From Patescibacteria group bacterium (GTDB lineage Bacteria; Patescibacteriota; Doudnabacteria; UBA920): a DNA stretch of 64,000 bases. The DNA is taken from positions 123,743 through 187,742 of the forward strand of contig DAIMCS010000002.1 in the NCBI GenBank assembly GCA_036726225.1, in the 5' to 3' direction. A model generated the notes under the pieces. The model saw only the letters and a program-made list of their open reading frames with translations, did no database searches and was not told where the DNA came from. This document shows, one piece after another, positions 25,235 through 62,866 of the stretch; within the stretch, counting starts at the first letter, position 1, and every line of letters begins with the position of its first letter. The translations under genes and the position numbers were made by a program.

Positions 25235-25315
25235 CGCTTCCGGCGCAGTAAAAAGTGACAAGTTGAAAGTAAAAAGTACTTTTAACTTTACACTTTCAAC
25301 TTTTAACTATATTTT

Positions 25316-25786
25316 ATGGCTGAAGAAAATATTACAACCGAAGAGGTAACCCAAGAAACTCCGGCAACTGCCGAAGCTGTTTCTCCTGTGGTTGAGGCTT
25401 CTGCAAAAATTAAGTCCAAGAAAAAGAAAAGCAAAGCCAAAATTACCAAAGGCAAAATTTACATTAACTCCACTTATAACAACACAATTGTCAGCCTTAC
25501 AGATATGGTTGGAAATGTACTTGTTTGGAGCTCGGCCGGTAAAATTGGTTTTAAAGGTTCAAAGAAATCCACTCCGTACGCCGGACAAAGAACCATGGAA
25601 GACGTGCTTGCCAAACTTCGTGAACGCGGACTTTCGGAGCTCGATGTTTTAATTAAAGGTATTGGCTCAGGCAGAGAATCTGCTATTAGGGCGCTTCAAG
25701 GCAGCGGATTAAATATTTTGTCTATTAAAGACCAGACCCCAATTCCTCACGGTGGCGTAAGGCCAAAGAAACCGAGACGAGTGTAA
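25316..25786 (+). CDS. rpsK: 30S ribosomal protein S11 with Lys/Ala-rich N-terminal extension
   Basis: IYINSTYNNTIVSLTDMVGNVLVWSSAGKIGFKGSKKSTPYAGQ. Confidence 0.92.
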   Translation: MAEENITTEEVTQETPATAEAVSPVVEASAKIKSKKKKSKAKITKGKIYINSTYNNTIVSLTDMVGNVLVWSSAGKIGFKGSKKSTPYAGQRTMEDVLAKLRERGLSELDVLIKGIGSGRESAIRALQGSGLNILSIKDQTPIPHGGVRPKKPRRV

Positions 25787-25789
25787 GTT

Positions 25790-25907
25790 AATTGAACAAG
25801 ATTAAGTAAGATTTACCTGCCTGCCGGCAGGCAGGAATGATTGAACAAGAGTGTACAGACAATCATGTCAATCTTGGTCAATCCTGATCAATCATTTAAA
25901 TTCATTT
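25790..25907 (+). repeat. Intergenic repeat-family element abutting the rpsD start (copy C), carrying a nested CCTGCCTGCCGGCAGGCAGG palindrome at 25816-25835
   Basis: Alignment by eye to copy B shows a clean 20-bp insertion. Confidence 0.85.
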
Positions 25908-26516
25908 ATGCGTTATACAGGTCCAAAAGTAAAAAAAGCAAGACGCCTGGGGATGGCTTTTACCCCCAAAGACGTAAAAATCCTCCAAAAGAGGAATTTT
26001 GCGCCTGGCCAGCACGGCCAAAACCGCAGCCGTCTTTCTGAATACGGAACCCAGCTCAAAGAAAAGCAGAAAGCTAAAGTGGCTTATGGAATAATGGAAC
26101 GCCAGTTCGAAATTTATTTTAACAAAGCTTTAAAGCAAACGGGAGTTACCGGTGACAACTTGCTCAAACTTTTGGAGCACCGGTTAGATAACATTGTTTT
26201 CCGTTTAGGTTTTGCTGAAACCCGCGCCCAGGCCAGACAGTTAGTTAACCACGGTTTTTTTGAAGTTAACGGCAAGCGCGTAGACATCCCTTCTTTTTCT
26301 GTTAAAGTCGGTGACATTGTTTCCGTCAGGCCGGTTAAACAGAAGAAAGCTTATATTGAAAAGATTAAAGAGAAGTTAAAGAATTTTAAAACTTTAGACT
26401 GGCTGCAATTAAACCCCGGTGAATTTAAAGGTAAAATTGTAAGCAGCCCGGAAGTCGAATCTTTGGGCTCCGAAATTAACACTCAGCTTATTGTTGAGCA
26501 TTATAGTAGGACATAA
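25908..26516 (+). CDS. rpsD: 30S ribosomal protein S4 (ORF track starts at an upstream in-frame M inside the repeat; true start MRYTGPK)
   Basis: MRYTGPKVKKARRLG...LDNIVFRLGFAETRAQARQLVNHG. Confidence 0.9.
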   Translation: MRYTGPKVKKARRLGMAFTPKDVKILQKRNFAPGQHGQNRSRLSEYGTQLKEKQKAKVAYGIMERQFEIYFNKALKQTGVTGDNLLKLLEHRLDNIVFRLGFAETRAQARQLVNHGFFEVNGKRVDIPSFSVKVGDIVSVRPVKQKKAYIEKIKEKLKNFKTLDWLQLNPGEFKGKIVSSPEVESLGSEINTQLIVEHYSRT

Positions 26517-26646
26517 ATTCGAAGTAAGAAATTCGAAATCCGAAAAATACAGAATTTCAAAAATTTAAATATTTATACATTAGAATTTAATAAGTGTTTC
26601 GAATTTCGATATTCGAATTTCGATATTAATTTGGAGGTCAAATTTT

Positions 26647-27585
26647 ATGGAAGCTATACCACTGCCAAATCGCGTTAAAGTTAGCGACCTTGGCAACAAC
26701 AAATACAGTCTGGTACTTGAGCCGCTATACCCCGGCTACGGTGTTACTATTGGTAATGCCATGCGCAGAGTATTTCTTTCCTCTATGCCTGGCGCTGCCG
26801 TAACCGCTGTCAAAATAAAATTCGTTGACCACGAATTTTCCACCATCCCGAACGTGAAGGAAGATGTTATCCAAATAATTTTGAACTTAAAACAGTTAAG
26901 GGTAAAAAGTTTTAGCGCAGAGCCCGTTAAATTGAGCCTGAAAGTTAAAGGTGAAAAAGTTGTTACTGCTGCGGACATTAAAGAAACCGACCAGGTCCAG
27001 GTTATAAGCAAAGAGTTGCATATTGCCACTTTGGACAACAAAAATTCCGAATTAGATATGGAATTAACAATTGAACAGGGCAGGGGATATGTGCCGGTGG
27101 AAGCCAGGGAGAACCAAAAACAGGAAGTCGGAGTAATTGCCATAGATGCAATATACACCCCGGTAAAGTCCGTGCACTTCGATGTCTCCAATGTGCGTGT
27201 CGGGCAGTTAACTAACTTTGACAAGCTGGAAATAGTTTTGGAAACCGACGGTTCGCTTTCCGGCCAGGAAGCTATGGATATTTGCGCTCATATTTTGGTT
27301 GACCACTTTACTATGATGTTTGGCGGAGATTTTGCCAAAGTTGAAAGTCCGGTTGTGGAAATGCAGACTGCAGAAGCCGCTGAAGCTATGGAAGCAATGA
27401 GCGAGCCTGCGGGTGAAAATGAAATCCAGGCCTCCATTCTTTCAACCAGGGCAAAAAATGCATTGGTTAAAAATGGCATTACCACTATGGCCCAACTTTC
27501 GGCTTTAACAGATGACCAAATTTCCAACCTTAGCGGACTTGGTGAAAAGACCATTACAGAAATTAAGGATTTTTTGAAAAGATAA
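26647..27585 (+). CDS. rpoA: DNA-directed RNA polymerase subunit alpha
   Basis: LEPLYPGYGVTIGNAMRRVLLSS-type N-terminal domain; C-terminal domain with ...LSTRAKNAL...; GGAGG SD upstream. Confidence 0.92.
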   Translation: MEAIPLPNRVKVSDLGNNKYSLVLEPLYPGYGVTIGNAMRRVFLSSMPGAAVTAVKIKFVDHEFSTIPNVKEDVIQIILNLKQLRVKSFSAEPVKLSLKVKGEKVVTAADIKETDQVQVISKELHIATLDNKNSELDMELTIEQGRGYVPVEARENQKQEVGVIAIDAIYTPVKSVHFDVSNVRVGQLTNFDKLEIVLETDGSLSGQEAMDICAHILVDHFTMMFGGDFAKVESPVVEMQTAEAAEAMEAMSEPAGENEIQASILSTRAKNALVKNGITTMAQLSALTDDQISNLSGLGEKTITEIKDFLKR

Positions 27586-27666
27586 CAGATACACACTAAT
27601 TGAATCAGCGGATGAACACGGATCAGTGTTAATCCGTAAATATCAGCGTTTATTAGTTTTACTTAT

Positions 27667-28011
27667 ATGAGGCATCAAAAGAAGAAAAAAATTGGTAAGG
27701 GTATGGATCACCGCAGGAAGCTGCTTCGCACTTTGGCTTCTTCGCTTGTTTTGTATGAAAAAATCCAGACCAATTACGCCAACGGTAAAGCTGCTAAATC
27801 TTACGTTGAAAAAGCCATTACTATTTCTAAAGTTAACTCATTGCATAGCCGCAGGCTTTTGCTTTCTAAGCTTTCGCCCATGGCTGCAAAAAAAGCTCTG
27901 GAAGTTTTAGGGCCTAAATACCAAGAGCGAAAAGGTGGCTATACACGTTTAATTAAACTTAATAATCCCAAAGCGGGAGCTTCTAAGGTAATTTTAGAAT
28001 TAGTAGAATAA
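27667..28011 (+). CDS. rplQ: 50S ribosomal protein L17
   Basis: MRHQKKKKIGKGMDHRRKLLRTLASSL... Confidence 0.9.
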   Translation: MRHQKKKKIGKGMDHRRKLLRTLASSLVLYEKIQTNYANGKAAKSYVEKAITISKVNSLHSRRLLLSKLSPMAAKKALEVLGPKYQERKGGYTRLIKLNNPKAGASKVILELVE

Positions 28012-28063
28012 TAGATTCAGCGTGTTATCAGCTTACTAATCCGCGATAATTCAGCGATTTAAT

Positions 28064-28486
28064 ATGAAATCTCAAATCACTACATTAGCAAATAAAGTCA
28101 GCCGCAAATGGCATCAAGTAGATGTTTCTAAAGAGCCAATGGGCCGCGTGGCAACACATATTGCCAATCTTTTGCGTGGTAAGCATAAGAGAGATTTTAC
28201 CCCGCACGTGGATATGGGCGACTACGTTATTGCCATTAATGCCGGGCATTTAAAACTCACGGGGCGAAAAGTTGCGCAAAAAAAATATTACAGACATTCG
28301 GGATACTTAGGGGGAATTAAATCTACCGCTTTAAAAGATTTAATTATAAAAAACCCGGAAGACGTGCTTAAGCGAGCAGTATTTTCTATGATAGACGATT
28401 TGAAATTTAGGAAGCAAATTATGTCACGTTTAAAAATTGTTAAAGGCGACAAGCACGATTATAAAGTGACAAACAATAATTCATAA
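28064..28486 (+). CDS. rplM: 50S ribosomal protein L13
   Basis: WHQVDVSKEPMGRVATHIANLLRGKHKRDFTPHVDMGDYVIAINA. Confidence 0.9.
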   Translation: MKSQITTLANKVSRKWHQVDVSKEPMGRVATHIANLLRGKHKRDFTPHVDMGDYVIAINAGHLKLTGRKVAQKKYYRHSGYLGGIKSTALKDLIIKNPEDVLKRAVFSMIDDLKFRKQIMSRLKIVKGDKHDYKVTNNNS

Positions 28487-28540
28487 AATAGTTGTCATCC
28501 CGAGCGACCGAAGGGAGTCGAGGGATCTCATCCAAGCATT

Positions 28541-29122
28541 ATGGTAACCAAAACACCCACAACCTCCGCCAAAGGCGGATCCGCCTCTGGCGGAAAATCA
28601 ACAGCCATTAAAGCGCCTCGTAAGCCCAGAGGTGCTGCTAAACCTGTCAAAGCAAAAGAAGTCGAGGAAGTTAAAACTCACGCGACTGCTGTTCATCCGC
28701 ATCCTGTAGAGCATAAACCGGCTCATGCTGAAAAAGGCAGGTATATTTTTGCAACCGGACGCAGAAAAACCGCTATTGCTAACGTCAGACTTTTTGAAGG
28801 CAAAGGCGAACAGGTTGTAAATAAACTTCCGCTTAAAAATTATTTTAACTATTCTTTTTATTTCGACGAAGTCATAAGGCCTCTGGAAGTTACAGGTCTT
28901 GAAGGCAAATATCACTTTACTGCACACATAAATGGCGGCGGCCCGCACGCCCAAGCAACCGCTTTGCGCCACGGTATAAGCATCGCCTTAGGCAGCATTT
29001 CTCAGGAAGTTAGAAAAGTTTTAAAAAAGAACGGCTTTTTAACCCGCGACGACAGAAAGAAAGAACGTAAGAAACCGGGTTTGAAGCGTGCAAGACGTTC
29101 CCCACAGTGGGCCAAGCGTTAA
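28541..29122 (+). CDS. rpsI: 30S ribosomal protein S9 with ~60-aa K/A/P-rich N-terminal extension
   Basis: RYIFATGRRKTAIANVRL...GGGPHAQATALRHGISIAL...KRARRSPQWAKR. Confidence 0.9.
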   Translation: MVTKTPTTSAKGGSASGGKSTAIKAPRKPRGAAKPVKAKEVEEVKTHATAVHPHPVEHKPAHAEKGRYIFATGRRKTAIANVRLFEGKGEQVVNKLPLKNYFNYSFYFDEVIRPLEVTGLEGKYHFTAHINGGGPHAQATALRHGISIALGSISQEVRKVLKKNGFLTRDDRKKERKKPGLKRARRSPQWAKR

Positions 29123-29138
29123 TCATTGCAAATTTAAA

Positions 29139-29166: not shown

Positions 29167-29168
29167 AA

Positions 29169-29512
29169 TGCTTTAAGCAAACTCGTAAGCCGAATTCTGT
29201 TTCTAAATAATCATCTATCTGGTCACGTTATTGCTAACGTGATCAAGCAACCTACCTAATTTGGTCTTGCACTCAAGTAAGGATTTGGCCGTTTCACCTT
29301 TAATGTTTCCATCAAAGCTAATCTCTTGCGAGATCCTTGGCGTCTTTCGTACCAAGCGTCTCTGTTCGCACCTCTAGGATTACTCCCGACGGGAATTACC
29401 CGCTACCAGTTTTGATAACTCATATGAGGCTATCAAATAAGTGTTCGGACTTTCCTCCCCAACCGGCATCTTGCGATGCCAATTAAAGCGATTATTCGGT
29501 TTGCTTAAAGCC
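29169..29512 (-). ncRNA. rnpB: RNase P RNA, bacterial type A
   Basis: The minus-strand reading contains GGGGAGGAAAGTCCG (P4 / CR-I), AAAGGTGAAACGGCC (GGUGAAA region) and ACAGAATTCGGCTTACGAG (ACAGAAnCCGGCUUA, CR-V). The P1 stem is gctttaagcaaac / gtttgcttaaagc. Length ~344 nt. Confidence 0.85.
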
Positions 29513-29533
29513 TAAAAAGTTTAACAAAAATAG

Positions 29534-29656
29534 TTGTTTTTGTCAAGGGAAAATGGTATAATAACTACAGAAAATTTTTGAAACACTACAGATAACTACA
29601 GAAAAATAAGCCAGTTACTTCTGTAGTCATCTGTAGATTTTTTTAGCTTCTGTAGT
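29534..29656 (+). promoter_or_regulatory. Promoter (TTGTCA ... extended -10 TGgTATAAT) followed by an array of CTACAGA / TCTGTAG direct and inverted repeats upstream of the initiating glycosyltransferase
   Basis: ggtataataactacagaaaatttttgaaacactacagataactacagaaaaataagccagttacttctgtagtcatctgtagatttttttagcttctgtagtttATG: three CTACAGA then three TCTGTAG. Confidence 0.6.
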
Positions 29657-29658: not shown

Positions 29659-31113
29659 ATGAAAAAAACCGAGCTTATTTTTAACCTTATTTCAATTGGT
29701 TTTGACGCTGTTTTTCTGCTCCTGGCGGGGATCGCGTCTTTTTATTTGAGGCAGACGAATTTTGCCACCAGGATAGTCGGCCACCCTGTAAGTTACGATT
29801 TGCAATTTCAGCAATTTATTTCTTCGGCTTACTCCGTGCTTCCGGTTTTGCTTTTAATTTTCGCGGCTTTAGGGCTGTATAATTTAAAAGGTACCCGAAA
29901 GTTTTCTTCCGAAATTGGGAGAATTATGGTCGGCACTTCGCTTAGCTTGCTGCTCATTATTTTAATTTTCTTTTTTAACACCAATTTTTTTGAGGACATA
30001 TTCCCTTCCAGGTTTATAATTCTTGCTGCCTGGGCTTTGGGGACATTGTTTGTCATTTTTGGCAGAACGCTTTTAAAACAGCTGCAAGTGTTAACGTTTA
30101 AAAATAATATAGGTTTGCATAAGTTGGTAATTATAAACGGCGGTCCCGAGCTCGACGTTATTGAAAGTATTTTGAAAAAAAAGGAACATGGTTATGAAAT
30201 TACCGGCGAATTCGCTTTTTCTGAAAATATTTTTGAGCAGCTGGAAAAATTGTATGAAGAAGGCAGGGTGGATGAAATTTTACAGGGCAATTCCAACTTG
30301 AATGACTCTGCAAATTTAAAATTGGTGCAATTTGCGCGTGACAAAGGCTTAAAATTCAGCTTTGTGCCCAATTTGTTTGAGGTGCAAAGAAACATTATTG
30401 AAACTGACAATTTAGACGGTATTCCGCTTATCAGTTTAAAAAATACTCCATTGGACGGCTGGGGCAAAGTGGTAAAGAGAATTATGGATATTATTTTAAG
30501 CGCGGTATGTCTTATTGCTACGTCGCCAATATTTTTAATTGTTTCCGTTCTAATTAAGTTCGATTCGGCCGGTAAAGTTATTTATTCTGCCGTTCGCGGC
30601 GGGCGCGGCAAAAATTTTAAGTTTTACAAATTCAGGAGTATGTACAGCCATTTAAGCATTGGCGAGGACTACGGCGGCCGGCAGGCGGAACAACTTAGAG
30701 AGCAGCTTTGGGAAAAAAATGACCGTGGCGGCAAAGAAGGGCCGTTTTTAAAAATTAAAGACGACCCTCGTGTGACTAAAATTGGCCGTTTTTTGCGCAG
30801 GACCAAACTGGACGAAATCCCGCAGTTTTGGAACGTGTTTGTGGGGGATATGAGTATGGTGGGCCCCAGGGCGCACGTGTTAGATGAGGTCGACAGGTAC
30901 AGGAACCGCTACCCCAGAATGTTTAGCATTAAGCCCGGGACTTTTGGGCTTTCACAAATTGCGCAAATGAACTGGCCGGATTTGCCGTTTGAGGAAGAAA
31001 TTAGGCTGAACACTTTTTATATTGAGAACTGGTCGCTGTGGCTGGATGTAAAAATTTTAGCAAAAAGTTTTTGGCAGCTGTTTTTTGGAAAAAAGCCCAA
31101 GGCAAACTATTAG
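29659..31113 (+). CDS. Undecaprenyl-phosphate hexose-1-phosphate transferase (WbaP/WcaJ-like 'bacterial sugar transferase')
   Basis: N-terminal TM bundle plus C-terminal catalytic domain with IMDIILSAVCLIATSPIFLIV...KFRSM...KDDPRVTKIGRFLRRTKLDEIPQFWNVFVGDMSMVGPR. Confidence 0.85.
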   Translation: MKKTELIFNLISIGFDAVFLLLAGIASFYLRQTNFATRIVGHPVSYDLQFQQFISSAYSVLPVLLLIFAALGLYNLKGTRKFSSEIGRIMVGTSLSLLLIILIFFFNTNFFEDIFPSRFIILAAWALGTLFVIFGRTLLKQLQVLTFKNNIGLHKLVIINGGPELDVIESILKKKEHGYEITGEFAFSENIFEQLEKLYEEGRVDEILQGNSNLNDSANLKLVQFARDKGLKFSFVPNLFEVQRNIIETDNLDGIPLISLKNTPLDGWGKVVKRIMDIILSAVCLIATSPIFLIVSVLIKFDSAGKVIYSAVRGGRGKNFKFYKFRSMYSHLSIGEDYGGRQAEQLREQLWEKNDRGGKEGPFLKIKDDPRVTKIGRFLRRTKLDEIPQFWNVFVGDMSMVGPRAHVLDEVDRYRNRYPRMFSIKPGTFGLSQIAQMNWPDLPFEEEIRLNTFYIENWSLWLDVKILAKSFWQLFFGKKPKANY

Positions 31114-31196
31114 AGTGAACAAGATTGATCAAGATTGACAAGAATGTCATCTAAAATCATGTCAATCTTTTAAATCTTATTTATTCTTGGTCAATT
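31114..31196 (+). repeat. Intergenic repeat-family element abutting the GT4 start (copy D)
   Basis: agtgaacaagattgatcaagattgacaagaatgtcatctaaaatcatgtcaatctt...cttggtcaattATG. Confidence 0.7.
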
Positions 31197-32270
31197 ATGA
31201 GGATCGCATTAGCACATGATTCCCTTACTCAAATGGGCGGGGCGGAAAGAGTGGTAGATGCATTACACGAACTTTTTCCAAACGCGCCTGTTTTTACATT
31301 GGTCTTTGACCCAAAGTTTAAAGAAAAGTATAAAGATTGGGACATTCAAACTTCACCACTACAGTCGCTGTACTTGGTTTTAGGAAAACTGCAATATTGT
31401 TTGCCGCTAATCCCGTGGGCGGTGGACCAGCTAAACTTTAGCGGCTACGATTTAGTTATTTCCTCCAGCTCGGGTTTTGTAAAAAATATCCGTGTGCCAA
31501 AAAATTGTGTGCATATAAATTATTGTCACACCCCAACCAGATTTTTGTGGAGCGATAACGATTATGTCAAACAGGAAGTAAATTTTTTCCTAAGGCCTTT
31601 TGTAAAAGTTTTTTTATCTAAAATGCGGAAGTGGGATTTAATTGGCGCCAAAAGGGTAACGCATTTTATTGCCAATTCAAAAGAAGTCCAGGATAGAATC
31701 CAAAAATATTATCAGCGTACTAGTACGCTGATATACCCGTTTGTGGATTCAAAATTTTGGAATTCGACAACGCCTAAGGGCGATTACTTCTTACTTGCAG
31801 GCAGGCTACATCCCCATAAAAAAAATGACCTTATTGTGGAAGTTTTTAATGACCTAAATATCCCGCTCCACGTTGTGGGTACAGGGAGGCAAGAGGGTTA
31901 TTTGAAGTCGATTGCTAAGCAAAATATTAGCTTTTTGGGCAGAATAAGCGACGAAGCGCTTAGGGATGAGTATAGCGCTGCTTTAGGGTTTATTTACCCA
32001 CAAATTGAAGATTTTGGCCTTATGCCACTGGAAGCCGCCGGCTGCGGCACAGCCACACTGGCTTACGGTGAGGGCGGCGCTAAAGAGACTGTTCTGCCCG
32101 GGGTAACCGGGGAGCTGTTTGACTCTTACAATGAGGAGAAAATTAAGCAGATGGTTTTGTCTTGGGATGCAAAAAAATATCGAACGGATGACTTAAAAAA
32201 CCAGGCAGAGAAATTTAGTAAAGAAAAATTTAAAAGTGAAATGTTAAATTTTGTAAAATCCCATGTCTGA
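31197..32270 (+). CDS. Family 4 glycosyltransferase; contains the 22-bp palindrome ATCAGCGTACTAGTACGCTGAT at 31720-31741
   Basis: GT-B C-terminal motif LAGRLHPHKKNDL...EDFGLMPLEAAGCGTATLAYGEGGAKETV. Confidence 0.85.
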   Translation: MRIALAHDSLTQMGGAERVVDALHELFPNAPVFTLVFDPKFKEKYKDWDIQTSPLQSLYLVLGKLQYCLPLIPWAVDQLNFSGYDLVISSSSGFVKNIRVPKNCVHINYCHTPTRFLWSDNDYVKQEVNFFLRPFVKVFLSKMRKWDLIGAKRVTHFIANSKEVQDRIQKYYQRTSTLIYPFVDSKFWNSTTPKGDYFLLAGRLHPHKKNDLIVEVFNDLNIPLHVVGTGRQEGYLKSIAKQNISFLGRISDEALRDEYSAALGFIYPQIEDFGLMPLEAAGCGTATLAYGEGGAKETVLPGVTGELFDSYNEEKIKQMVLSWDAKKYRTDDLKNQAEKFSKEKFKSEMLNFVKSHV

Positions 32271-42474: not shown

Positions 42475-45198
42475 ATGTCTTTTTTAAGCAATTTATTTAG
42501 CGGACAAAAGAACCCTTTGGACAGGTTTTCCAAAGAGCTTTTGGAAGTTAACAGTTACAGGGAAGAAGTGGAAAAGCTCACACAGGAGCAAATGAGAAAA
42601 GAAGTGACAAGTTACAAGTCACAAGTAACAAGTTTAGAAACTGACAAAGAGATTTTTTTAAAGCTTCAGCAAATTGCTCCCAGGGTTTTTGCCCTAATCC
42701 GCGAAGCCGCAAAAAGGTCCATTGGCCAGTTCCATTACGACGTCCAGCTCGCCGGCGGTTTTGTTTTGTCCAGCGGGAAAATTGCTGAAATGAAAACCGG
42801 AGAAGGAAAAACTCTAACTGCGACTTTGCCGCTCGGGCTTTTTGCGCTTGCAGGCAAAGGCGCGCATTTGGTCACAGTAAACGACTATTTAGCCAGGTGG
42901 CAAGCCTCTCTTATGGGCCCGGTTTTCCATTATCTTGGACTTTCTACTTCATCCATTCAGCACGAAGCCTCGTTTTTGTACGACTCAAGCTACCAGCCAG
43001 AACAGGAAGAAATTACCAAGCTCGAAGGCGAGACCCAGGGTTTGGTAATGGATGTAAAACATATGCGGCCGGTTAAACGCAAAGAAGCCTACGCCGCGGA
43101 TATAACTTACGGCACCAACAACGAATATGGCTTTGACTATTTGCGCGACAATATGGCGCAAAACGTTTCGCAAATAGTTCAGCGCGAATTGTTTTTTGCA
43201 ATTGTCGACGAAGTTGACTCTATTTTAATAGATGAAGCGCGTACCCCTCTTATCATTAGCATGCCGGACGCAGAGCCAACCAGCAAGTATTACGATTTTG
43301 CCAAATTAGTTGAGCGGTTAGACGAAAGCACAGACTATATAGTTGACGAAAAGCACAAATCAGCATCGCTGACCGATGCGGGCATTAATAAAATTGAAAG
43401 CATTTTAAAAGTGCCGAACATTTACGACACTTCCAAAGGCGTTACTACCATCCACCATATTGAACAGGCTTTAAGGGCCAGGACTTTGTTTAAAAAAGAC
43501 AGGGACTATGTGGTGCGTGAAGGCGAAATTATTATTGTAGACGAATTTACCGGGCGTTTAATGTTTGGCCGCAGGTATTCAGAAGGACTGCACCAGGCAA
43601 TTGAGGCAAAAGAAAACGTAAAAATCCAGCAGGAAAGCAAAACCCTTGCCACCATAACCTTCCAAAATTTATTTAGGCTTTACAAAAAACTTTCGGGTAT
43701 GACCGGAACGGCCAAAACCGAGGAAGAGGAGTTCTTTAAAATTTATCAGCTTACAGTTGAGCAAATCCCAACCCATAGGCCAATGGTAAGGGCAGACGGC
43801 GCGGATATGATTTATAAAACTGAGGAAGCCAAGTTTAAAGCTATTGCAAAAGAAGTAAAAGAACGCCACAAAAAAGGCCAGCCGGTTTTAATTGGTACGG
43901 TAAGCATTGCCAAAAACGAAATGCTGGCAGAAGTTTTAAAGAGCGAAGGGCTGACTTTTGAAATTTTAAACGCTAAAAACCACGAACGTGAGGCGCATAT
44001 TATTTCCCAGGCCGGCCGCTTGGGGCAAATTACTTTGGCCACTAACATTGCCGGTCGCGGTGTGGACATTTTGCTCGGCGGCAACCCCATAGACCAGCAG
44101 GAGGCCAAAGCTGTGCGAGATGCGGGTGGTCTGCACATTTTGGGCACGGAGCGCCACGAATCGCGCCGTATAGACAACCAGCTTCGCGGGCGCGCCGGCC
44201 GTCAGGGTGACCCGGGGTCTTCGCAGTTTTTTGTTTCTATGGAAGATGACCTTATGCGCCTTTTTGGCGGCGAGCGGATGAAGTCCTTAATGACCACTTT
44301 GGGCCTGCCGGACGACCAGCCAATTGAAGCAAAATTGGTTTCGCGGTCTATTGAGTCTGCGCAAAAGAAAATTGAAGGCTTAAACTTTGACACCAGAAAA
44401 CACGTGCTTGAATTTGACGACGTATTAAACCACCAGCGCAACGTAATTTACAAAAGGCGCCGCGCGTTTTTGGCAGACACAGAAGAAAGCAAACAGGGGG
44501 ATTTGAAAAAAGAAATTTTGGAAATGGTGGAAAAGGAAATTGGGGAGCTGGTGACAACTAATTTAAATGCGTTAGACGAACTTGGCAATAAAAAAGAGGA
44601 CTGGGATAATTTGTTTAAAACTGCAAACAGCATAATTCCTGTTGATCAGAATCTTATTGCTAAAATAAAAGAAGAAGCAAAAAATGCGGCAGACAGGGAA
44701 TTTGCAGTTGCCGATGTGCTATATAAAGCAGCGGCTGATTTTTGGGAAAAGAAAGAGCAGGAAATGGGCAGGGAGGTTTTTGAAGGCGCGCAACGGTTTG
44801 TGGCTTTGCAGTCTTTAGACAACCTTTGGATGGAGCATTTGGACACTATGGACCATTTGCGCGACTCGGTAAGGCTCCGCGGCTATGGCCAAAGGGATCC
44901 GCTTGTTGAGTACAAAAAAGAAGGGCATTTAATGTTCCAGCGTTTGACCGCAGAAATAAACAAGCAAATTGTCTTTACTATTTTCCACATAAGTGTCCAA
45001 GCCAAGCCACAGCAACAGGTCCAGCCAATGAATTTGAATTTATCGAGTCAATCAGCGAATCAGTCAATCAGCGAATCAGCTGATAAAAGTGTGGGCAGAA
45101 ACGAGCCTTGCCCCTGCGGCAGCGGGAAGAAATGGAAAAAATGCGGGATGATAAATTCCCAAGAACATCAAACGAATATATCTAAAACTAATCACTAA
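42475..45198 (+). CDS. secA: Preprotein translocase ATPase SecA
   Basis: DVQLAGGFVL, MKTGEGKTLTATLP (Walker A), DEVDSILIDEARTPLIIS; C-terminal zinc motif CPCGSGKKWKKCG. Confidence 0.95.
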   Translation: MSFLSNLFSGQKNPLDRFSKELLEVNSYREEVEKLTQEQMRKEVTSYKSQVTSLETDKEIFLKLQQIAPRVFALIREAAKRSIGQFHYDVQLAGGFVLSSGKIAEMKTGEGKTLTATLPLGLFALAGKGAHLVTVNDYLARWQASLMGPVFHYLGLSTSSIQHEASFLYDSSYQPEQEEITKLEGETQGLVMDVKHMRPVKRKEAYAADITYGTNNEYGFDYLRDNMAQNVSQIVQRELFFAIVDEVDSILIDEARTPLIISMPDAEPTSKYYDFAKLVERLDESTDYIVDEKHKSASLTDAGINKIESILKVPNIYDTSKGVTTIHHIEQALRARTLFKKDRDYVVREGEIIIVDEFTGRLMFGRRYSEGLHQAIEAKENVKIQQESKTLATITFQNLFRLYKKLSGMTGTAKTEEEEFFKIYQLTVEQIPTHRPMVRADGADMIYKTEEAKFKAIAKEVKERHKKGQPVLIGTVSIAKNEMLAEVLKSEGLTFEILNAKNHEREAHIISQAGRLGQITLATNIAGRGVDILLGGNPIDQQEAKAVRDAGGLHILGTERHESRRIDNQLRGRAGRQGDPGSSQFFVSMEDDLMRLFGGERMKSLMTTLGLPDDQPIEAKLVSRSIESAQKKIEGLNFDTRKHVLEFDDVLNHQRNVIYKRRRAFLADTEESKQGDLKKEILEMVEKEIGELVTTNLNALDELGNKKEDWDNLFKTANSIIPVDQNLIAKIKEEAKNAADREFAVADVLYKAAADFWEKKEQEMGREVFEGAQRFVALQSLDNLWMEHLDTMDHLRDSVRLRGYGQRDPLVEYKKEGHLMFQRLTAEINKQIVFTIFHISVQAKPQQQVQPMNLNLSSQSANQSISESADKSVGRNEPCPCGSGKKWKKCGMINSQEHQTNISKTNH

Positions 45199-45223
45199 CA
45201 ACTAATTACTATTCACTAACCCT

Positions 45224-46198: not shown

Positions 46199-48790
46199 AT
46201 GAAAAATGTTAGATTGCCAGCTTACATAAAACCCGAACGTTACCAAATTTTAATGAAACCTAATTTGGAGGGTTTTACTTTTGATGGTGAGGAAACAATA
46301 TATTTGAGGCTGGATAAATCAACACGCGAAATAGTTTTGCATGCAAAGGAATTAAAAATAGCTGAGGCATCGTATAAGGTATTAGGTATAACGTATAAAG
46401 GGAAGGTTTCTTATGATGTTAAAGCTGAAACGGCAGCATTTGCTTTCCCAAAATCCCTACCTAGAGGGAAAGGGGAATTAAAACTTTCTTTCAAAGGAAT
46501 TTTAAACGACCAAATGCGCGGGTTTTACCGGAGCCGCTACACCCACGAGGGCAAAGAAAAGCATATGGCCACAACGCAGTTTGAAGCCACAGATGCCCGC
46601 AGAGCTTTTCCTTGTTTTGATGAGCCGGCACAAAAAGCGATTTTTGACGTAACTTTAATGGTGCCAAAGGGACTGACGGCCATCTCTAACACCATTGAAA
46701 CATCAATAGCCGAGCATGAAAGCGGTTACCAGGTTGTAAAATTTGCGCCTACGCCCAAAATGTCCACCTATCTTTTGGCATTTATAGTGGGGGATTTTGA
46801 ATTTATAGAAGGCTGGGCCAAACCATCCAAAATTTCACCCCCACCTAACCTCCCCCCTCAAGGGGGAGGAAAAAATAAAGGAACCTTAGTACGTGTATTC
46901 GTAACTCCGGGGAAAAAGCACCAGGCAAAATTTGCGTTGGGCACGGCCATTAAAATGCTTGAGTTTTATAATAAATATTTTGACATCCCATATCCTTTGC
47001 CGGTTTTGGATTTAATTGCAATTCCAGATTTTTCCCACGGCGCTATGGAAAATTGGGGCGCGGTAACTTACCGCGAATCTGCCCTCTTGGTTGACACTAA
47101 ATTATCATCCGCTGCTAACAAGCAATGGGTGGCTTTGGTTATTGCCCACGAGCTGGCCCACCAATGGTTTGGTAATTTGGTAACCATGGAATGGTGGACC
47201 CATTTGTGGCTTAACGAAGGGTTTGCATCTTATATAGAATATTTGGCAGTTGACCATCTTTTTCCTAAATGGGACATTTGGACGCAGTTTGCCGCGCACG
47301 ATTTAAACCCGGCCTTAGAACTCGATTCGCTAAAGCACACCCATCCTATAGAGGTGGAAGTCCGCCACCCCGACGAGATTGGTGAAATTTTTGACGAAAT
47401 TAGCTACAGCAAAGGCTCAAGTGTTATTCGTATGCTGGCCGGTTACTTGGGTAAAACAGATTTTCGTGACGGCCTGCGTTATTATTTAAAAAAACATTCC
47501 TACAAAAATGCTTCCACTATAGATTTGTGGGAAGCTTTTGAAAAAGTGTCGAAAAAACCCGTCAGCGCGCTTATGCAAAATTGGACAGGCAAAGGCGGAT
47601 ACCCGGTAGTAAAAATTATTCAAAAACCGAAAAGTTTGCAATTTACCCAAAGCAGGTTTTTTTCTTCGCCCGTTTCCAAAAAGCAGGTAGGGGACAAAAC
47701 CGTTTGGCAGGTACCGGTGTCAGTTACGGGTGACGGGGTAGGGGTGACGGGTTATTTGATGGAAAAAAAATCTATGAGCATACCCAAACCAAAAGGGGAG
47801 TGGGTAAAAGTTAATTTTGGCGAAACAGGATTTTTTAGGGTTAATTACCCCTCTCAAATGCTTGCTGAGTTTAAACCGGCAATTAAATCTAAAAAATTGC
47901 CCTCAATTGACCGGTTGGGAATTATTAGAGACGCGTTTGCGCTTTCTGAAGCCGGAGATTTGCCGGCAGCCCGGGCGCTGGCTTTAACGAATGCTTATAT
48001 AACAGAAAACGATTATACAGTCTGGTTGCAGCTGGCTTCGTCTTTGGCGGACATAAAAATGCTCATTTTTGGCCAAAAGTATTATTTTTTATTTGAAAAT
48101 TACGCGCGCACTGTTTTTGAAAATGTAGGTAAAAAAGTCGGCTGGAAGGTAAAAGCAGGGGAAGGCCATACCGAGGCTTTGCTTAGAAGCTTGGTTTTGC
48201 ATCAGCTTGCTTCTTATAACCACGCGCCAACAATAAAAAAAGGTTTGCAAATTTATAAATCCAAGAATATTTCGGCAGATATAAAGAGCGTAGTTTACCA
48301 GATTGCGGCCCAGCAGGGAGGCGCAAAAGAACATCAAAAATTTATTCAAAGTTACAAAACAGAAAGCCTAAGTGAGGAGAAAAACCGAATTGGCCGCGCT
48401 TTGGGACAATTTACAAACCCGGGTCTTTTGAAAAAAAGTTTGCAGTTTGCCTTGTCCAAAGAAGTTAGGATCCAGGATACAGCCGGAATTTTTATGTCAG
48501 TCTGGAATAACCCGCAAGGAAGGCAAATAGCCTGGCAGTTTACCAAAAAGAGTTGGGGAGATTTGCTTAAGAGGTATCCATCGTCGGGGCATATGTTGTC
48601 TCGGTTCATAAAACCCGCAGGCAATTTTGTTTCTGCAAAAGATGCAAAAGACGTAGGCGCGTTTTTTAAAAAGCATAAAGCGCCGGGCGCCAAAAGGGCG
48701 GTTGAGCAGGTTTTAGAAAAAATTTACAGCCAGGACGCCTGGTTTTTGCGCGACGGCAAGCATATAGAAAATTGGTTGAAAAGTTTATGA
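46199..48790 (+). CDS. pepN: Aminopeptidase N (M1 family metallopeptidase) carrying two in-frame mini-element insertions
   Basis: GAMENWG exopeptidase motif; HELAHQWFGNLVTMEWWTHLWLNEGFA (HEXXH-18-E). Insertions at 46371-46400 and 46849-46869. Confidence 0.9.
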   Translation: MKNVRLPAYIKPERYQILMKPNLEGFTFDGEETIYLRLDKSTREIVLHAKELKIAEASYKVLGITYKGKVSYDVKAETAAFAFPKSLPRGKGELKLSFKGILNDQMRGFYRSRYTHEGKEKHMATTQFEATDARRAFPCFDEPAQKAIFDVTLMVPKGLTAISNTIETSIAEHESGYQVVKFAPTPKMSTYLLAFIVGDFEFIEGWAKPSKISPPPNLPPQGGGKNKGTLVRVFVTPGKKHQAKFALGTAIKMLEFYNKYFDIPYPLPVLDLIAIPDFSHGAMENWGAVTYRESALLVDTKLSSAANKQWVALVIAHELAHQWFGNLVTMEWWTHLWLNEGFASYIEYLAVDHLFPKWDIWTQFAAHDLNPALELDSLKHTHPIEVEVRHPDEIGEIFDEISYSKGSSVIRMLAGYLGKTDFRDGLRYYLKKHSYKNASTIDLWEAFEKVSKKPVSALMQNWTGKGGYPVVKIIQKPKSLQFTQSRFFSSPVSKKQVGDKTVWQVPVSVTGDGVGVTGYLMEKKSMSIPKPKGEWVKVNFGETGFFRVNYPSQMLAEFKPAIKSKKLPSIDRLGIIRDAFALSEAGDLPAARALALTNAYITENDYTVWLQLASSLADIKMLIFGQKYYFLFENYARTVFENVGKKVGWKVKAGEGHTEALLRSLVLHQLASYNHAPTIKKGLQIYKSKNISADIKSVVYQIAAQQGGAKEHQKFIQSYKTESLSEEKNRIGRALGQFTNPGLLKKSLQFALSKEVRIQDTAGIFMSVWNNPQGRQIAWQFTKKSWGDLLKRYPSSGHMLSRFIKPAGNFVSAKDAKDVGAFFKKHKAPGAKRAVEQVLEKIYSQDAWFLRDGKHIENWLKSL

Positions 48791-58915: not shown

Positions 58916-59953
58916 ATGGAATACTCGGTTTTGACTAAAATTTTTACCTTAACTTCCCTTGCTTTTATTTTTGCCCTGGCCGTCACTCCGCTTTTAAGCA
59001 ATTTCCTCCACAAAAACAAATTAGGCAAACAAATACGTAACGACGGTTCAACTCCGCTCTTTTCCAAAATGCATAAATCCAAAGCCGGCACTCCCACAAT
59101 GGGCGGGATTTTAGTCTGGGGCACGCTTTTGATTATAATGGGGATTTTTTGGTTTTTAAACCGGGTTTTAAATATTGAACAGTTTGGATTTTTAGATTTT
59201 TACTCCAGAAAAGAAACCTTGCTGCCCTTAGGCGCGCTTTTGGGAGCTTCCATTGTGGGCGCTATAGATGACTGGCTCGACATCCGCCAGCTTGGGCATA
59301 AAGGCAGGGGACTGCGCTTTCGTTTTAAGTTTATGCTTTACACGCTGGTTGCAACCATTGGGGCATGGTGGTTTTATTTCAAGCTCGAATTTTCTGCAGT
59401 CCACGTGCCGTTTGTGGGCGCGGTTGACCTGGGTATGTGGTTTATCCCGTTTTTTATTCTGGCCGTTGTCGCTGCCAGCTTTGCGGTTAATGAAACCGAC
59501 GGGCTGGACGGGCTTGCTGCCGGAAGTTTAATGATTGCTTTTTTTGCTTACGGGCTCATTGCTTTTTTGCAGGGGAAAAATGACCTCGCATCATTTATTG
59601 GGGTAATCTGCGGAGGGCTGCTTGCGTTTTTATGGTTTAACGTCCATCCGGCCAAATTTTTTATGGGTGATACCGGCTCAATGGGTCTTGGTGTTTTACT
59701 GGCTGTGGTGGCTTTTTTAACCAATTCCATTTTTTTGCTCGGTCTTATAGGTTTTGTATTTATGGCAGAGGCCGCATCTTTTTTATTACAATTGCTGTGG
59801 CGCAAGGCATTCCATAAAAAATTGTTCCTTTCCGCCCCGCTACACCACCATTTAGAGGCCTTGGGCTGGCCCGAAGCCAAAGTGACAATGCGGTTTTGGA
59901 TAATCGCAGCCGTTACGAGTATTGTAGGCGTAATAATTTATTTTTTGGGATAA
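58916..59953 (+). CDS. mraY: Phospho-N-acetylmuramoyl-pentapeptide transferase
   Basis: NETDGLDGLA and MGDTGSMGLG motifs; extended -10 TGgTATAAT at 58797-58808. Confidence 0.9.
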   Translation: MEYSVLTKIFTLTSLAFIFALAVTPLLSNFLHKNKLGKQIRNDGSTPLFSKMHKSKAGTPTMGGILVWGTLLIIMGIFWFLNRVLNIEQFGFLDFYSRKETLLPLGALLGASIVGAIDDWLDIRQLGHKGRGLRFRFKFMLYTLVATIGAWWFYFKLEFSAVHVPFVGAVDLGMWFIPFFILAVVAASFAVNETDGLDGLAAGSLMIAFFAYGLIAFLQGKNDLASFIGVICGGLLAFLWFNVHPAKFFMGDTGSMGLGVLLAVVAFLTNSIFLLGLIGFVFMAEAASFLLQLLWRKAFHKKLFLSAPLHHHLEALGWPEAKVTMRFWIIAAVTSIVGVIIYFLG

Positions 59954-61519
59954 ATGTATTCTTTATTAATAAAAAATGCAAGCGTAATTGACGGGACGGG
60001 GTCGCCCGCACAAATAATGGACGTTGCGGTCCAGGGCGACCAAATTGTAAATGTTGCGCCGAAAATAAATTCCCAGGCACAAACCACTGTAGATGCTTCC
60101 GGCAAAATTTTAGCCCCGGGATTTATAGATTTGCAAAACCACAGCGATAGCTACTGGCAAATTTTCGACAACCCGTCTTTGGAGAGCTTAATTTCGCAGG
60201 GTTTTACCACCATCCTGCTGGGCAACTGCGGAGCCAGCTTAGCGCCCCTCCTTTCCCGCGAGGCCCTTTTGGCAATGCAAAAATGGCACAACTTAGAGGG
60301 CGTTAATGTTAACTGGCAAACTTTTTCAGAGTTTATGGAAGAGCTTGCTAAAAAGCGTTTTGCCTGCAACGTTGGCAGCTTAGTGGGTTACGCGACCTTG
60401 AGGCGTGCAATTGTTGGTGACCAAATTCGCGGGCTTGAGAAGGGCGAAACCGATAGTTTAAAAATGGCGCTGGAAGAAAGTATGGATGCGGGGGCGTTTG
60501 GGCTGTCCAGCGGGCTTTCATATGCCCATGAGATTATTATTTCCGAACTTGAGCTTTTTGAAGCCGCCAAAATTGTTAAAAGTAAAAACGGTATGTTTGC
60601 CATTCACTTAAGGAGCGAAGGCACAGAAGTAGTGGAAGCCGTGGATGAAGCTTTAGAAATTGCCAAGAGGACAGAAAGCAATGTAAGAATTTCGCATTTA
60701 AAAGCGCGCAATGAAGCAAACTGGGAAAAACTCCCCGAAATGCTTAACTTAATTGATACCGCGTACCACCAGGGCGTCAACATTCATTTTGACCTCTACC
60801 CTTACGAAATTATGTGGCAGCCGCTTTACAGTTATTTGCCGAAATGGGCAATTGAGGGTGGTAGGCAATTAATGATTAAGCATTTTTCAGATTCAGTCCA
60901 AAAAAATAAAATCCTTTTGTATTTGAATAATTCCGGAATAAAATTTGCGGACGTTAAAGTCGCATCTACGGCCAATAAATTAAATTTTACAGGCAAAACT
61001 ATTGGGCAAATTGCAAAAAATTTGGAATGTAGCTCTGAACAGGCAGTTTTGCATTTAATACAAAACGGCGGGTCGGAGATTATGGTGTTTGAAAATAATT
61101 TAAATATGGCGCAAGTTGAGCAGCTTTTGTCCCATCCCCTGTCATTTATTGCTACAGACGGGGCGGGGTTTAGCCAAACCGGCCAAGCGGGCCTGGTACA
61201 CCCGCGCTCTTTTGGTACAGCCGCAAAATTTTTAAACTGGGCAATTACAAAAAAGACTTTAGACTTGCCCCAGGCAATAAAAAAATTAACTGGCGGCCCG
61301 GCTAAAAAAATGGGGCTAAAAAAGCGGGGAGAAATTAAAATAGGTAATTTTGCTGACCTGGTTATTTTTGATGCCGGCAAAATTCAAGACAAAGCCACTT
61401 ACGAAAACCCCTACCAGTTCAGCGAAGGCGTGGAGTATGTTTTTGTAAACGGAAAAGCTGCAGTGGCGGAAGGAAAATTAACAGGGCAGCTCACAGGCTA
61501 TGCTTTAAGGAAAAGTTAA
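59954..61519 (+). CDS. Metal-dependent amidohydrolase of the D-aminoacylase / N-acyl-D-amino-acid deacylase type
   Basis: GFIDLQNHSD metal-binding start of the amidohydrolase fold; 521 aa; inserted between mraY and murD. Confidence 0.65.
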   Translation: MYSLLIKNASVIDGTGSPAQIMDVAVQGDQIVNVAPKINSQAQTTVDASGKILAPGFIDLQNHSDSYWQIFDNPSLESLISQGFTTILLGNCGASLAPLLSREALLAMQKWHNLEGVNVNWQTFSEFMEELAKKRFACNVGSLVGYATLRRAIVGDQIRGLEKGETDSLKMALEESMDAGAFGLSSGLSYAHEIIISELELFEAAKIVKSKNGMFAIHLRSEGTEVVEAVDEALEIAKRTESNVRISHLKARNEANWEKLPEMLNLIDTAYHQGVNIHFDLYPYEIMWQPLYSYLPKWAIEGGRQLMIKHFSDSVQKNKILLYLNNSGIKFADVKVASTANKLNFTGKTIGQIAKNLECSSEQAVLHLIQNGGSEIMVFENNLNMAQVEQLLSHPLSFIATDGAGFSQTGQAGLVHPRSFGTAAKFLNWAITKKTLDLPQAIKKLTGGPAKKMGLKKRGEIKIGNFADLVIFDAGKIQDKATYENPYQFSEGVEYVFVNGKAAVAEGKLTGQLTGYALRKS

Positions 61520-61528
61520 TGACCTAAA

Positions 61529-62866
61529 ATGGGAATAAAAGATTTAAATAACAGAAAAGTAGCGGTTTTGGGGTTTGGTTTAGAAGGTAAAGCCGTTATA
61601 CGATACTTAACCAAGCACGGACTTCAGCCCGTGCTGTTTGATCAAAAGCCGCTTAATGATTGGAGTGAGGAAGACCAAAAAGAATTAGAGTTGCTTTCTG
61701 TGGAATCGGTTTTGGGTTCTAATTGCTTTGAAAAATTAAAAGATTTTGAAATTGCTTTTAGAAGTCCGGGGATAAAGTTGTTACAAGTTATAAGTGACAA
61801 GTTGCAAGTGACAAGCCAGACCAAATTCTTTTTTGAAAATTGCCCTTCCAAAATTATTGGCGTTACCGGTACTAAAGGCAAAGGCACAACCTGCGCGCTA
61901 ATTTTTGAAATGCTGAAGGCTGATAAAAAATCGGCGCATCTAACGGGCAATATTGGCAAAGTCCAGCCTTTGGAAATTTTAGACGACTTAAAACCCGAAG
62001 ATTGGATTGTTTATGAGCTTTCTAGTTTTCAGCTCCAGGATCTTAGCCAAAGCCCTTATGTGGGTGTTGTGCTTATGGTAACGTCTGAACATTTAGATTA
62101 TCACACAGGCCACGGCGAGTACCTGGAGGCTAAGTCAGCAATTACTAAATTCCAAAACGCGGAAGATTTTGCAGTTATAAATGCGGATTTTGAAAATTCA
62201 AAAAAAATTGGCGAATTGTCAAAAGGCAAAAAGTTATATTTTAGCAGAAAATCGGACGCGGACTGTTTTGTAAAGGACGGGAAAATAATTGCCCCCAAAT
62301 TTGGTTTTGAATTTAAAATTACAAATTTGCAACTGCGCGGCGAACATAATTTAGAGAATGTTTGCGCTGCAGTTTTAGCTGCTAATTCGGCCCGGTGCTC
62401 GGCTTTGGCAATTGAGTCAGCTATTAAAGGTTTTAAGGGCCTTGAGCATCGTTTGGAGTTTGTAACGGAAAAAAACGGAATTAAATTCTACAACGATTCT
62501 TTTTCCACGACTCCGGAAACCGCAATTGCCGCAATTAAATCTTTTAGTGAGCCGCTAATTGTTATTTTGGGAGGTTCTTCTAAGAATTCTAATTTTAATG
62601 AGTTGGGCAAAGTTATAAACACATCTAAAAATATTAAAACGCTAATTTTAGTCGGCCAGGAGGCACAAAAAATTAAACAATCCCTGGATAGCTCAAGCCT
62701 TAAATTAATGGAGGGCGCAAAAAATATGGTTGAGATTTTTAATCAAATTACGTCTGTGGCTAAACCGGGTGACGTAGTTTTACTTAGCCCCGCCTGTGCT
62801 TCGTTTGGTATGTTTAAAAATTATAAAGACAGGGGAGAACAGTTTAAAAAGCAGGCAGGGGACTAA
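61529..62866 (+). CDS. murD: UDP-N-acetylmuramoylalanine--D-glutamate ligase
   Basis: VTGTKGKGTT P-loop; Mur ligase middle and C-terminal domains. Confidence 0.88.
   Translation: MGIKDLNNRKVAVLGFGLEGKAVIRYLTKHGLQPVLFDQKPLNDWSEEDQKELELLSVESVLGSNCFEKLKDFEIAFRSPGIKLLQVISDKLQVTSQTKFFFENCPSKIIGVTGTKGKGTTCALIFEMLKADKKSAHLTGNIGKVQPLEILDDLKPEDWIVYELSSFQLQDLSQSPYVGVVLMVTSEHLDYHTGHGEYLEAKSAITKFQNAEDFAVINADFENSKKIGELSKGKKLYFSRKSDADCFVKDGKIIAPKFGFEFKITNLQLRGEHNLENVCAAVLAANSARCSALAIESAIKGFKGLEHRLEFVTEKNGIKFYNDSFSTTPETAIAAIKSFSEPLIVILGGSSKNSNFNELGKVINTSKNIKTLILVGQEAQKIKQSLDSSSLKLMEGAKNMVEIFNQITSVAKPGDVVLLSPACASFGMFKNYKDRGEQFKKQAGD

Follow-up and report, generated by a model that had tools for sequence, protein, structure and literature searches.

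Heptanucleotide tandem tracts in secA, in murD and in a ribosomal-protein spacer of a Patescibacteria group bacterium

The stretch of DNA analysed here, called the window throughout, comprises 64,000 nucleotides (64 kb) of contig DAIMCS010000002.1 (positions 123,743 to 187,742), assigned to a Patescibacteria group bacterium. Its protein genes all lie on one strand and include genes for DUF8128 and VirB4/TraG-like proteins as well as mur genes, a content that fits the candidate phyla radiation (CPR), and from sequence the host appears to be a Candidatus Doudnabacteria-like CPR bacterium. A SecA identical to that of the window is encoded on the Joint Genome Institute (JGI) soil metagenome contig Ga0137452_1000027; a contig of 202,313 bp carries MurD and S11 of the strain, which is present in the samples JGI 3300011441 and SRR6448456. 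The nearest GTDB genomes are metagenome-assembled genomes labelled Candidatus Doudnabacteria or Patescibacteria with 60-80% SecA identity, and several MurD homologues bear Doudnabacteria names. An initial annotation of the window had reported an over-represented 11-mer, AAGTGACAAGT, inside secA and murD and in the spacer between rpsM and rpsK. The identities of the open reading frames (ORFs) bear out these gene assignments: SecA is encoded at 42475-45198, MurD at 61529-62866, ribosomal protein S13 at 24845-25234 and S11 at 25316-25786. The 11-mer, and the tandem repeat in which it is embedded, are the subject of this study.

Three exact copies of AAGTGACAAGT are present in the window, at 25253-25263 (rpsM-rpsK spacer, within the left arm of a hairpin), from 42602 in secA and from 61792 in murD. 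When the strand bias was examined, all three copies were found on the plus strand. The claim that the 11-mer is far above chance holds, since 0.02 copies are expected, none of 100 shuffles reached a count of 3 and the shuffle maximum was 1. Read directly from the sequence, the three sites also have the 12-mer AAGTGACAAGTT in common. Of the two copies first reported in murD, the one at 61792 is exact; the other, at 61806-61816, is AAGTGACAAGC, which ends in C.

The runs had been described as hexamer-phased, a phasing that would preserve the reading frame. Instead, AAGT recurs every 7 nt at all three sites (25253-25277, 4 units; 42602-42633, 5 units; 61785-61809, 4 units followed by AAGC as the fifth), and Tandem Repeats Finder (TRF) independently assigned period 7 to each, with 4.6-5.1 copies. 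No AAGT run of period 5 or 6 was found on either strand of the window, and the sole period-8 run (24590-24625, minus strand) is a tract separate from the three AAGTGACAAGT sites. The family consensus is (ACAAGTN)4-5, with imperfect units and about 30 nt per tract. A 7-nt unit is translated through all three frames, and the reading frame is intact because each genic tract fills a whole number of codons.

The genome was sampled for ACAAGTN in the window and in 10 kb downstream of it from the same strain, 74 kb in total. No further ACAAGTN tract was found in the 10 kb, which hold one other heptamer tract, in lepA, and no exact inverted copy of AAGTGACAAGT was found. A metagenome scan for ACAAGTNACAAGTNACAAGT matched at least 80 contigs; among the matches listed, contig GC ran from 31 to 68% and none came from the organism or sample of the window. 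The ACAAGTN unit is a widespread simple repeat and not lineage-specific. The coordinates of the tracts and hairpins are collected in Table 1.

Table 1. Heptamer tracts and spacer hairpins of the window and of the adjoining DNA of the same strain (L205 is a sequence of that strain which reaches past the window, L207 a sequence of the closest relative)
Feature	Position (strand)	Units	Context
rpsM-rpsK hairpin, left arm	25247-25277 (+)	AGTAAAA AGTGACA AGTTGAA AGTAAAA AGT	TRF period 7, 4.6 copies
rpsM-rpsK hairpin, right arm	25278-25308 (+)	ACTTTTA ACTTTAC ACTTTCA ACTTTTA ACT	inverted complement of AAGT tract
secA tract	42602-42634 (+)	AAGTGAC AAGTTAC AAGTCAC AAGTAAC AAGTT	codons 43-54 (E V T S Y K S Q V T S L)
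murD tract	61780-61817 (+)	GTTACAA GTTATAA GTGACAA GTTGCAA GTGACAA GCC	codons 84-97 (L L Q V I S D K L Q V T S Q)
pepN tract	46369-46401 (+; core 46372-46398)	GTATAAG	codons 57-68; aminopeptidase N ORF 46199-48790
ACTAATC tract	45187-45219 (+)	ACTAATC	across secA stop (45196-45198) and spacer to ATG 45224
lepA tract, same strain	L205 16161-16186	CAGTAAA x3.7	about 5 kb past window end, variable loop
GTATAAG hairpin	arms 22408-22443 and 22454-22488 (+)	GTATAAG (x5 in first arm)	fills spacer before ORF at 22490
rpsD-rpoA spacer hairpin	26515-26624 (+)	TTTCGAA heptamer tract	right arm 26597-26624
Period-10 element	18604-18700, 24746-24847, 25787-25910, 31100-31200; L207 110-220		four copies in window

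The genic tracts replace existing coding sequence. In secA the tract aligns gap-free with EVLEFRKKISGL, EISNFKLQIAKY and EILDFKLQIGDL of relatives and with KTAEFRARLEK of the Escherichia coli SecA. In murD its 3' end is the conserved V-T-S-Q-T-K motif, of which TSQTK is invariant in 22 MurD sequences, and the stretch with the tract falls 5 residues short of its length in solved MurD structures and 2-7 residues short of that in relatives with an ordinary 'LSHPDL...' segment. The pepN tract stands in for a variable segment of equal length, with no insertion relative to L003, L006 and L030, three loci of relatives. Insertion into secA, pepN or murD was accordingly rejected, the alignments to relatives and to solved structures being gap-free or shorter, and neither the extra sequence nor the target duplication of a mobile element was found at the genic sites. 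Three units make seven residues, as in (CAAGTGA)3, which reads QVTSDKL, and the 7-residue periodic peptides VTSYKSQ in SecA and QVTSDKL in MurD take the place of ordinary, poorly conserved helices. For the 11-mer itself, the frame used in secA gives E-V-T-S and that used in murD gives S-D-K. The seventh base of the unit is C or T exactly where T-N-A is in frame (AAG TCA, AAG TTG), which avoids TGA and TAA and explains the G/T/C/A series of the secA units. RNA structure was not detected in the genic tracts (z = -0.3 in secA, +0.9 in murD and -0.2 in a third). Across the end of secA, the ACTAATC tract supplies a TAA to each of the three frames ahead of the next ATG, and L003 has CTAACTA x3.4 just past its own secA stop. 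Upstream of that stop, at 45046-45086, the C-terminal linker of SecA also holds a period-8/16 tract, (AATCAGCG/AATCAGTC)x2, before the zinc-binding SEC-C motif; AATCAGCG was tried as a further family and rejected as not enriched (4 copies, 1.7 expected).

In the rpsM-rpsK spacer the AAGT tract is one half of a 55-nt hairpin. Directly after it lies (ACTTNNN)4 at 25278-25302, unmentioned in the initial annotation, and this right arm stops 8 nt short of the rpsK ATG (25316). The spacer RNA folds at -21 kcal/mol (z = -4.0), and none of 200 shuffles folded as well. Compared with the 11-mer, the right arm gave no minus-strand match at up to 4 mismatches in 3 units. An AAGT/ACTT hairpin likewise occupies the rpsM-rpsK spacer of L208 and L209 (S11 identity 87% and 86%), while in L207, the closest relative (90%), a period-10 element lies there and the space between rpsK and rpsD is free of such an element. 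With three sequences of the rpsM-rpsK hairpin, each affected by repeat-induced indels, the alignment is unusable for covariation. The GTATAAG hairpin folds at -32.5 kcal/mol (z = -5.5), and the infA-rpmJ, rpmJ-rpsM and rpsK-rpsD spacers carry tracts of period 8 and period 10. The rpsM-rpsK hairpin and the related period-10 element are imperfect spacer palindromes of a dispersed family, as are palindromes of the repetitive extragenic palindromic (REP) or miniature inverted-repeat transposable element (MITE) kind. At the hairpins, the signal for intrinsic terminators was not above that of shuffled sequence, and terminators were rejected. Upstream of infA, 24231-24260 holds a strong promoter-like site of the sigma-70 type, close to consensus (TTGACA-18-TAGAAT, extended -10 TG), which probably drives an infA-rpmJ-rpsM-rpsK-rpsD-rpoA-rplQ operon. 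Given this site and the absence of a terminator signal, the hairpins are intercistronic elements of one transcript.

The period-10 sequences belong to a dispersed intergenic element of about 100 nt, with units TTGAACAAGATT... and ...AATCTTGGTCAATCCTGATCAATCATTTAAATTCAnnTATG. Three of the four copies, those from 18604, 24746 and 25787, reach the start codon of the next gene. Because the element sits in different spacers in the window and in L207, hairpin elements turn over between spacers in a REP- or MITE-like manner. Nested in the rpsK-rpsD copy is a GC-rich perfect palindrome, CCTGCCTGCCGGCAGGCAGG (25811-25833), which was matched 7 times at up to 1 mismatch against 0.34 expected; its core, TGCCTGCCGGCAGGCA, recurs at 16053-16068 (in the region 16050-16068), with a half-site at 23493-23504. 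The longest rpsD ORF begins at GTG 25851, within the repeat element (25851-25907). Alignments to the S4 family models start at ATG 25908; a protein begun there has 202 residues and is as long as its counterparts in relatives, so that ATG 25908 is the likely true start.

By a lag-identity scan against dinucleotide shuffles, the window has 6 tracts of period 7 (0.2 expected) and 6 of period 14 (0.3 expected), 3 each of periods 4, 8 and 10, and at most 1 of any other period, for which 0-0.55 were expected. Over 49 CPR loci (871 kb), period 7 was the commonest, with 48 tracts against 1 expected or 5.5 per 100 kb, and it stood above the frame-compatible periods 6, 9 and 12; the density in the window was 9.4 per 100 kb. 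The excess was weaker in non-CPR loci (604 kb), with 15 period-7 tracts against 2 expected. Of 54 CPR tracts, 32 were wholly within ORFs, 14 in spacers and 8 at ORF edges. As 88% of the CPR sequence is coding, spacers are about 3-fold enriched in tracts. The sense strand of the coding tracts is 43% A, and 11 of the 32 are placed within the first 20% of their ORF. Searches of the literature turned up no description of such tracts in CPR bacteria.

Relatives carry tracts at the same sites. The period-7 segment of secA covers nt 123-164 in the window, nt 124-163 in L003 and nt 126-161 in L006, where the unit is AAATTKC in both relatives, and its length is fixed among the relatives. It is the sole internal segment of this kind in the window and L006; L003 has a second one at nt 1473-1504, and the other period-7 segment of the window gene, nt 2710-2747, is the ACTAATC tract over the stop codon. 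No period-7 tract was found in secA of L002 (SecA 77% identical) or L005. The pepN tract lies at nt 170-206 in the window and at nt 169-203 in L003, with a different unit. In murD the site, at about nt 250-290, is shared by the window, L083 and L084, and visibly so by L082: L084 has CAAGTTACAAGTTACAAGTTACAAGTGACAAGCC, the same unit as the window, L082 has that unit in degraded form, and L083 has CAATTAA, which encodes QLTINNL. Peptides of further MurD homologues show the same two patterns, ACAAGTN-type and CAATTAA-type, and many MurD relatives have an ordinary non-repeat segment there. Both murD site 2 and the lepA loop hold tracts and vary in length from species to species. The lepA loop, which carries the CAGTAAA tract in the strain of the window, contains 14 inserted residues in L082; the insertion consists of two heptamer tracts in roughly inverted orientation, and these may give a hairpin in the coding region. 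Under random placement each coincidence would arise by chance in a few per cent of cases, and the tract positions are therefore not random. The coincident sites are variable, indel-prone parts of the proteins, and both ancestry with concerted change of the unit and recurrent origin at permissive hot-spots are possible.

MurD has an indel hot-spot in the loop between 'LIYEMLK' and 'YLTGNIGK', with insertions over about 40 columns (columns 139-182 of alignment A4) among 22 Doudnabacteria sequences. In the window this loop is nearly free of insertions; those examined as DNA, in L084 (ACAAGTG, 10391-10432) and in L082 (AAATCTC), are heptamer tracts.

Some tracts are kin to one another. The pepN tract and the spacer left arm at 22406-22437 are identical at 31 of 32 positions, the imperfect units included, and a pair that shares its imperfections is a copy and not the product of independent slippage. 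Among 82 tracts, an exact 12-mer was shared by 8 of 148 same-genome pairs and by 25 of 3166 between-genome pairs (p = 7e-5). In the window, ACAAGTN is dispersed over 3 loci and GTATAAG over 2, and the unrelated heptamer units GTATAAG, TTTCGAA, ACTAATC and CAGTAAA of the same genome behave alike. Some units recur across genomes: ACAAGTN (window, L084, L022), CAATTAA (L083, L209), GATTAAR (L082, L084) and AAATCYN (several).

Several other features of the window were recorded. A bacterial RNase P class A RNA occupies 29170-29507 of the minus strand, which carries none of the protein genes, and was the only match to Rfam at the gathering threshold; the hairpin regions match no known RNA family. 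A hairpin of period-7-like units (ACTACAGA...) follows just downstream of it, at 29581-29641. No tRNA was found in the window. The ORF at 234-3512 encodes 1092 residues with DUF11-type repeats and contains a perfect tandem duplication at 903-1465 (300-bp unit, 1.9 copies, 100% identical); as the contig collection holds no record of the exact 1092-residue protein, this duplication could be recent or an assembly effect.

The reading that we favour, with some confidence but well short of certainty, is that the three sites represent one heptanucleotide family like the short tandemly repeated repetitive (STRR) sequences of cyanobacteria, born by slippage, dispersed or homogenised by conversion over short patches and, within proteins, tolerated in permissive segments only. 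At least three to four head-to-tail 7-nt units, an excess of period 7 and the presence of the unit at several loci are what is expected of heptanucleotide simple sequence repeats (SSRs), and of the three roles that had been offered for the 11-mer, slippage-prone repeats come nearest. Replication slippage on units of 7 nt would give rise to the tracts and drive their turnover. The murD tract may have grown from the conserved codons CAA-GTN-ACA-AGY (Q-V-T-S), which by themselves make up 1.6 units. The copies of one genome would be kept alike by a common source or by conversion of short patches from one dispersed tract to another, and purifying selection would confine tracts to spacers and to permissive parts of proteins, in which three units correspond to seven codons. 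Inverted pairs in spacers would give AU-rich hairpins in the infA-rpmJ-rpsM-rpsK-rpsD-rpoA transcript, which probably act at the level of the mRNA (processing, stability or coupling) and not as intrinsic terminators. The genic copies themselves are probably without function.

Several observations weigh against this explanation. Imperfect units should suppress slippage. Slippage by one unit in secA or murD would be lethal, which makes a change of unit at fixed length awkward for slippage alone, and the occurrence of AAATTKC in L003 and L006 where the window has AAGTNAC, at the same tract length, points to conversion or templating. No slippage polymorphism was seen between the two consensus sequences compared, L205 and L206 from different samples, which match at 100% identity along 21 kb that take in the tracts of murD and lepA. 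The test of 12-mer sharing is biased, since the window, selected for precisely this feature, supplies 4 of the 8 positive pairs, and a looser test of unit consensus (at least 6 of 7 positions) within and between genomes was not significant (p = 0.45). The abundance of ACAAGTN in the organism rests on 74 kb of its genome. Finally, persistence at the same codons in orthologues of 60-72% identity could reflect a selected function and not tolerance.

Such a function is the core of one alternative, which we regard as rather unlikely, namely that the tracts are RNA or DNA cis-elements whose periodicity, rather than exact sequence, is recognised by a host factor. A unit that drifted together with this factor would explain why the same codons of essential genes are used across genera, and the coincident positions in secA, pepN, murD and lepA, the early location of the 11 coding tracts mentioned above and the likeness of tracts within one genome are all in its favour. 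The right arm at 25278-25308 is moreover complementary to the AAGT tracts of secA and murD. In one concrete variant, no likelier than the rest, arms set free by the spacer hairpins would base-pair in trans with the genic tracts, which are single-armed. But L002 lacks the secA tract at 77% SecA identity, many MurD relatives have a non-repeat segment at the tract site, and the closest relative, L207, has a different element in the rpsM-rpsK spacer. The units have no common consensus, the genic tracts are without RNA structure, and the permissiveness of variable, indel-prone sites can by itself explain the coincidence. The suggestion of a sequence-specific binding site in the initial annotation is unlikely, because relatives hold different units at the same sites.

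There is likewise only a small chance, in our judgement, that the tracts are what a tiny mobile or templated element has left behind. Such an element, akin to the heptamer arrays and small dispersed repeats of Nostoc, would be copied into existing tracts or permissive sites by a dedicated enzyme or RNA template, overwriting about 30 nt at unchanged length. The 31/32-identical pair occurs with the same imperfections in unrelated places, a spacer and pepN, the 12-mer AAGTGACAAGTT is common to three loci, the same units (ACAAGTN, CAATTAA, GATTAAR) recur in different genomes, and hairpin elements swap spacers among close relatives. Nevertheless, conversion of the RecA type between 30-nt tracts would yield the same pattern, and the genic sites show no target-site duplication or change of length. 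The unit in murD follows the local conserved codons (QVTS with CAAGTGA, QLTS with CAATTAA), which local evolution fits better than import. Neither a transposase nor a reverse transcriptase nor a template was identified; no search of the window ORFs was aimed at one.

As a broader proposal, an active templated or conversion process in Doudnabacteria, and perhaps in CPR bacteria generally, might write heptamer tracts of about 30 nt, characteristic of the genome, into fixed sites at unchanged length, the tracts serving as periodic RNA or DNA signals; we think this improbable, if not negligible. The fixed sites would then be, with no greater assurance, the intercistronic hairpins and the 5' parts of essential genes, with secA, murD, pepN and lepA among them. 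Templated writing together with a role as periodic signals would explain why the same codons are occupied across genera while the unit changes in concert.

Phase variation, in which secA and murD would be contingency loci switched by gain or loss of 7-nt units as neuO is, appears very improbable. Heptanucleotide repeats in the 5' part of coding regions do have a precedent in neuO (PMC3046976), but secA and murD are essential housekeeping genes, their units are imperfect and few (4-5), the two samples L205 and L206 show no difference in length, and the length of the secA tract is constant among relatives. We give even less credit to AAGTGACAAGT as a sequence for DNA uptake in natural transformation, a role proposed in the initial annotation and now unsupported: the 11-mer is non-random, with one copy in an intergenic inverted-repeat hairpin and the others in poorly conserved protein segments without indels, but it is embedded in tandem heptamers at three places only in 74 kb, other unrelated heptamer units behave identically, relatives hold other units at the same sites, ACAAGTN is found in metagenome contigs over a wide GC range among the matches listed, and the opposite hairpin arm is not an exact copy, so that no terminator made of an exact inverted pair is present.

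The tempting misreading of the motif as an uptake signal is thus corrected, and the motif is placed among the heptanucleotide simple repeats. Heptamers are the dominant short tandem period of the CPR loci, and they re-code helices of essential genes as 7-residue periodic peptides. Should the coincidence of positions exceed what permissiveness explains, the tracts would offer a tractable case of concerted simple-repeat evolution under fixed length, and a handle on the purpose of the long-unexplained excess of heptamers in bacteria. Heptamer tracts are in any case a source of annotation and alignment artefacts in CPR proteins, and they may add to the indel variability of CPR genes.

The tracts can be compared with four known systems. 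DNA uptake sequences occur at a density of roughly one per kb, in intergenic hairpins and in tolerant coding segments without indels. The 11-mer resembles the DNA uptake sequence (DUS) of Neisseria and the uptake signal sequence (USS) of Pasteurellaceae in being a short over-represented oligomer found in just such places, an intergenic hairpin and tolerant coding segments without indels. It differs from them in a density at least 20 times lower (3 copies in 74 kb, where one 9-12-mer per kb or so would be expected), in its tandem heptamers, in the several unrelated units and in a motif that is not lineage-specific. The poly-psi repeat AAGACTC of neuO, in the E. coli K1 prophage CUS-3, consists of in-frame heptads and is a phase-variation switch (PMC3046976). 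Like it, the tracts described here are heptanucleotide repeats in the 5' coding region in which 3 units equal one heptad (RLKTQDS in neuO; VTSYKSQ and QVTSDKL here). In neuO, however, the repeats are perfect, number 2-93 copies, are hypervariable and turn on or off a non-essential enzyme that modifies the surface, whereas secA and murD carry 4-5 imperfect units of fixed length, with no variation seen in two samples; they are thus not the perfect, hypervariable repeats in a dispensable gene that define a contingency locus. With REP sequences, bacterial interspersed mosaic elements (BIMEs) and MITE-like repeats, the spacer hairpins share imperfect palindromes in intercistronic spacers, dispersal and a presence that varies by spacer in close relatives. 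Unlike these, they have arms made of tandem short units, single arms occur within genes, and no transposase that goes with them is known in this genome, although no screen of the window ORFs was aimed at one.

The closest likeness is to other bacterial heptamers. Heptameric simple repeats are over-represented in many bacteria, polymerase slippage having been proposed as the cause (PMC4692102, citing Mrazek 2007); the GGGAATC heptamers of Xanthomonas are dispersed and often in inverted pairs, Calothrix has three families of heptanucleotide repeats, and heterocystous cyanobacteria have the heptanucleotide STRR sequences (PMC4692102). The tracts of the window agree with the STRR and Xanthomonas heptamers in the 7-nt unit, the few to tens of copies, the period-7 excess, the dispersal and the inverted intergenic stem-loops. 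For the STRR and Xanthomonas heptamers, too, slippage has been proposed. The known heptamers are described as mainly intergenic, whereas the units seen here, in a CPR lineage, are AT-rich and imperfect, and about 60% of the tracts of the CPR loci are within ORFs, essential genes included, at the same codons in relatives. The motif is therefore of a known class, the heptanucleotide simple repeats; what is new is the CPR lineage and the in-frame imperfect tracts in essential genes, at the same codons across related genera.

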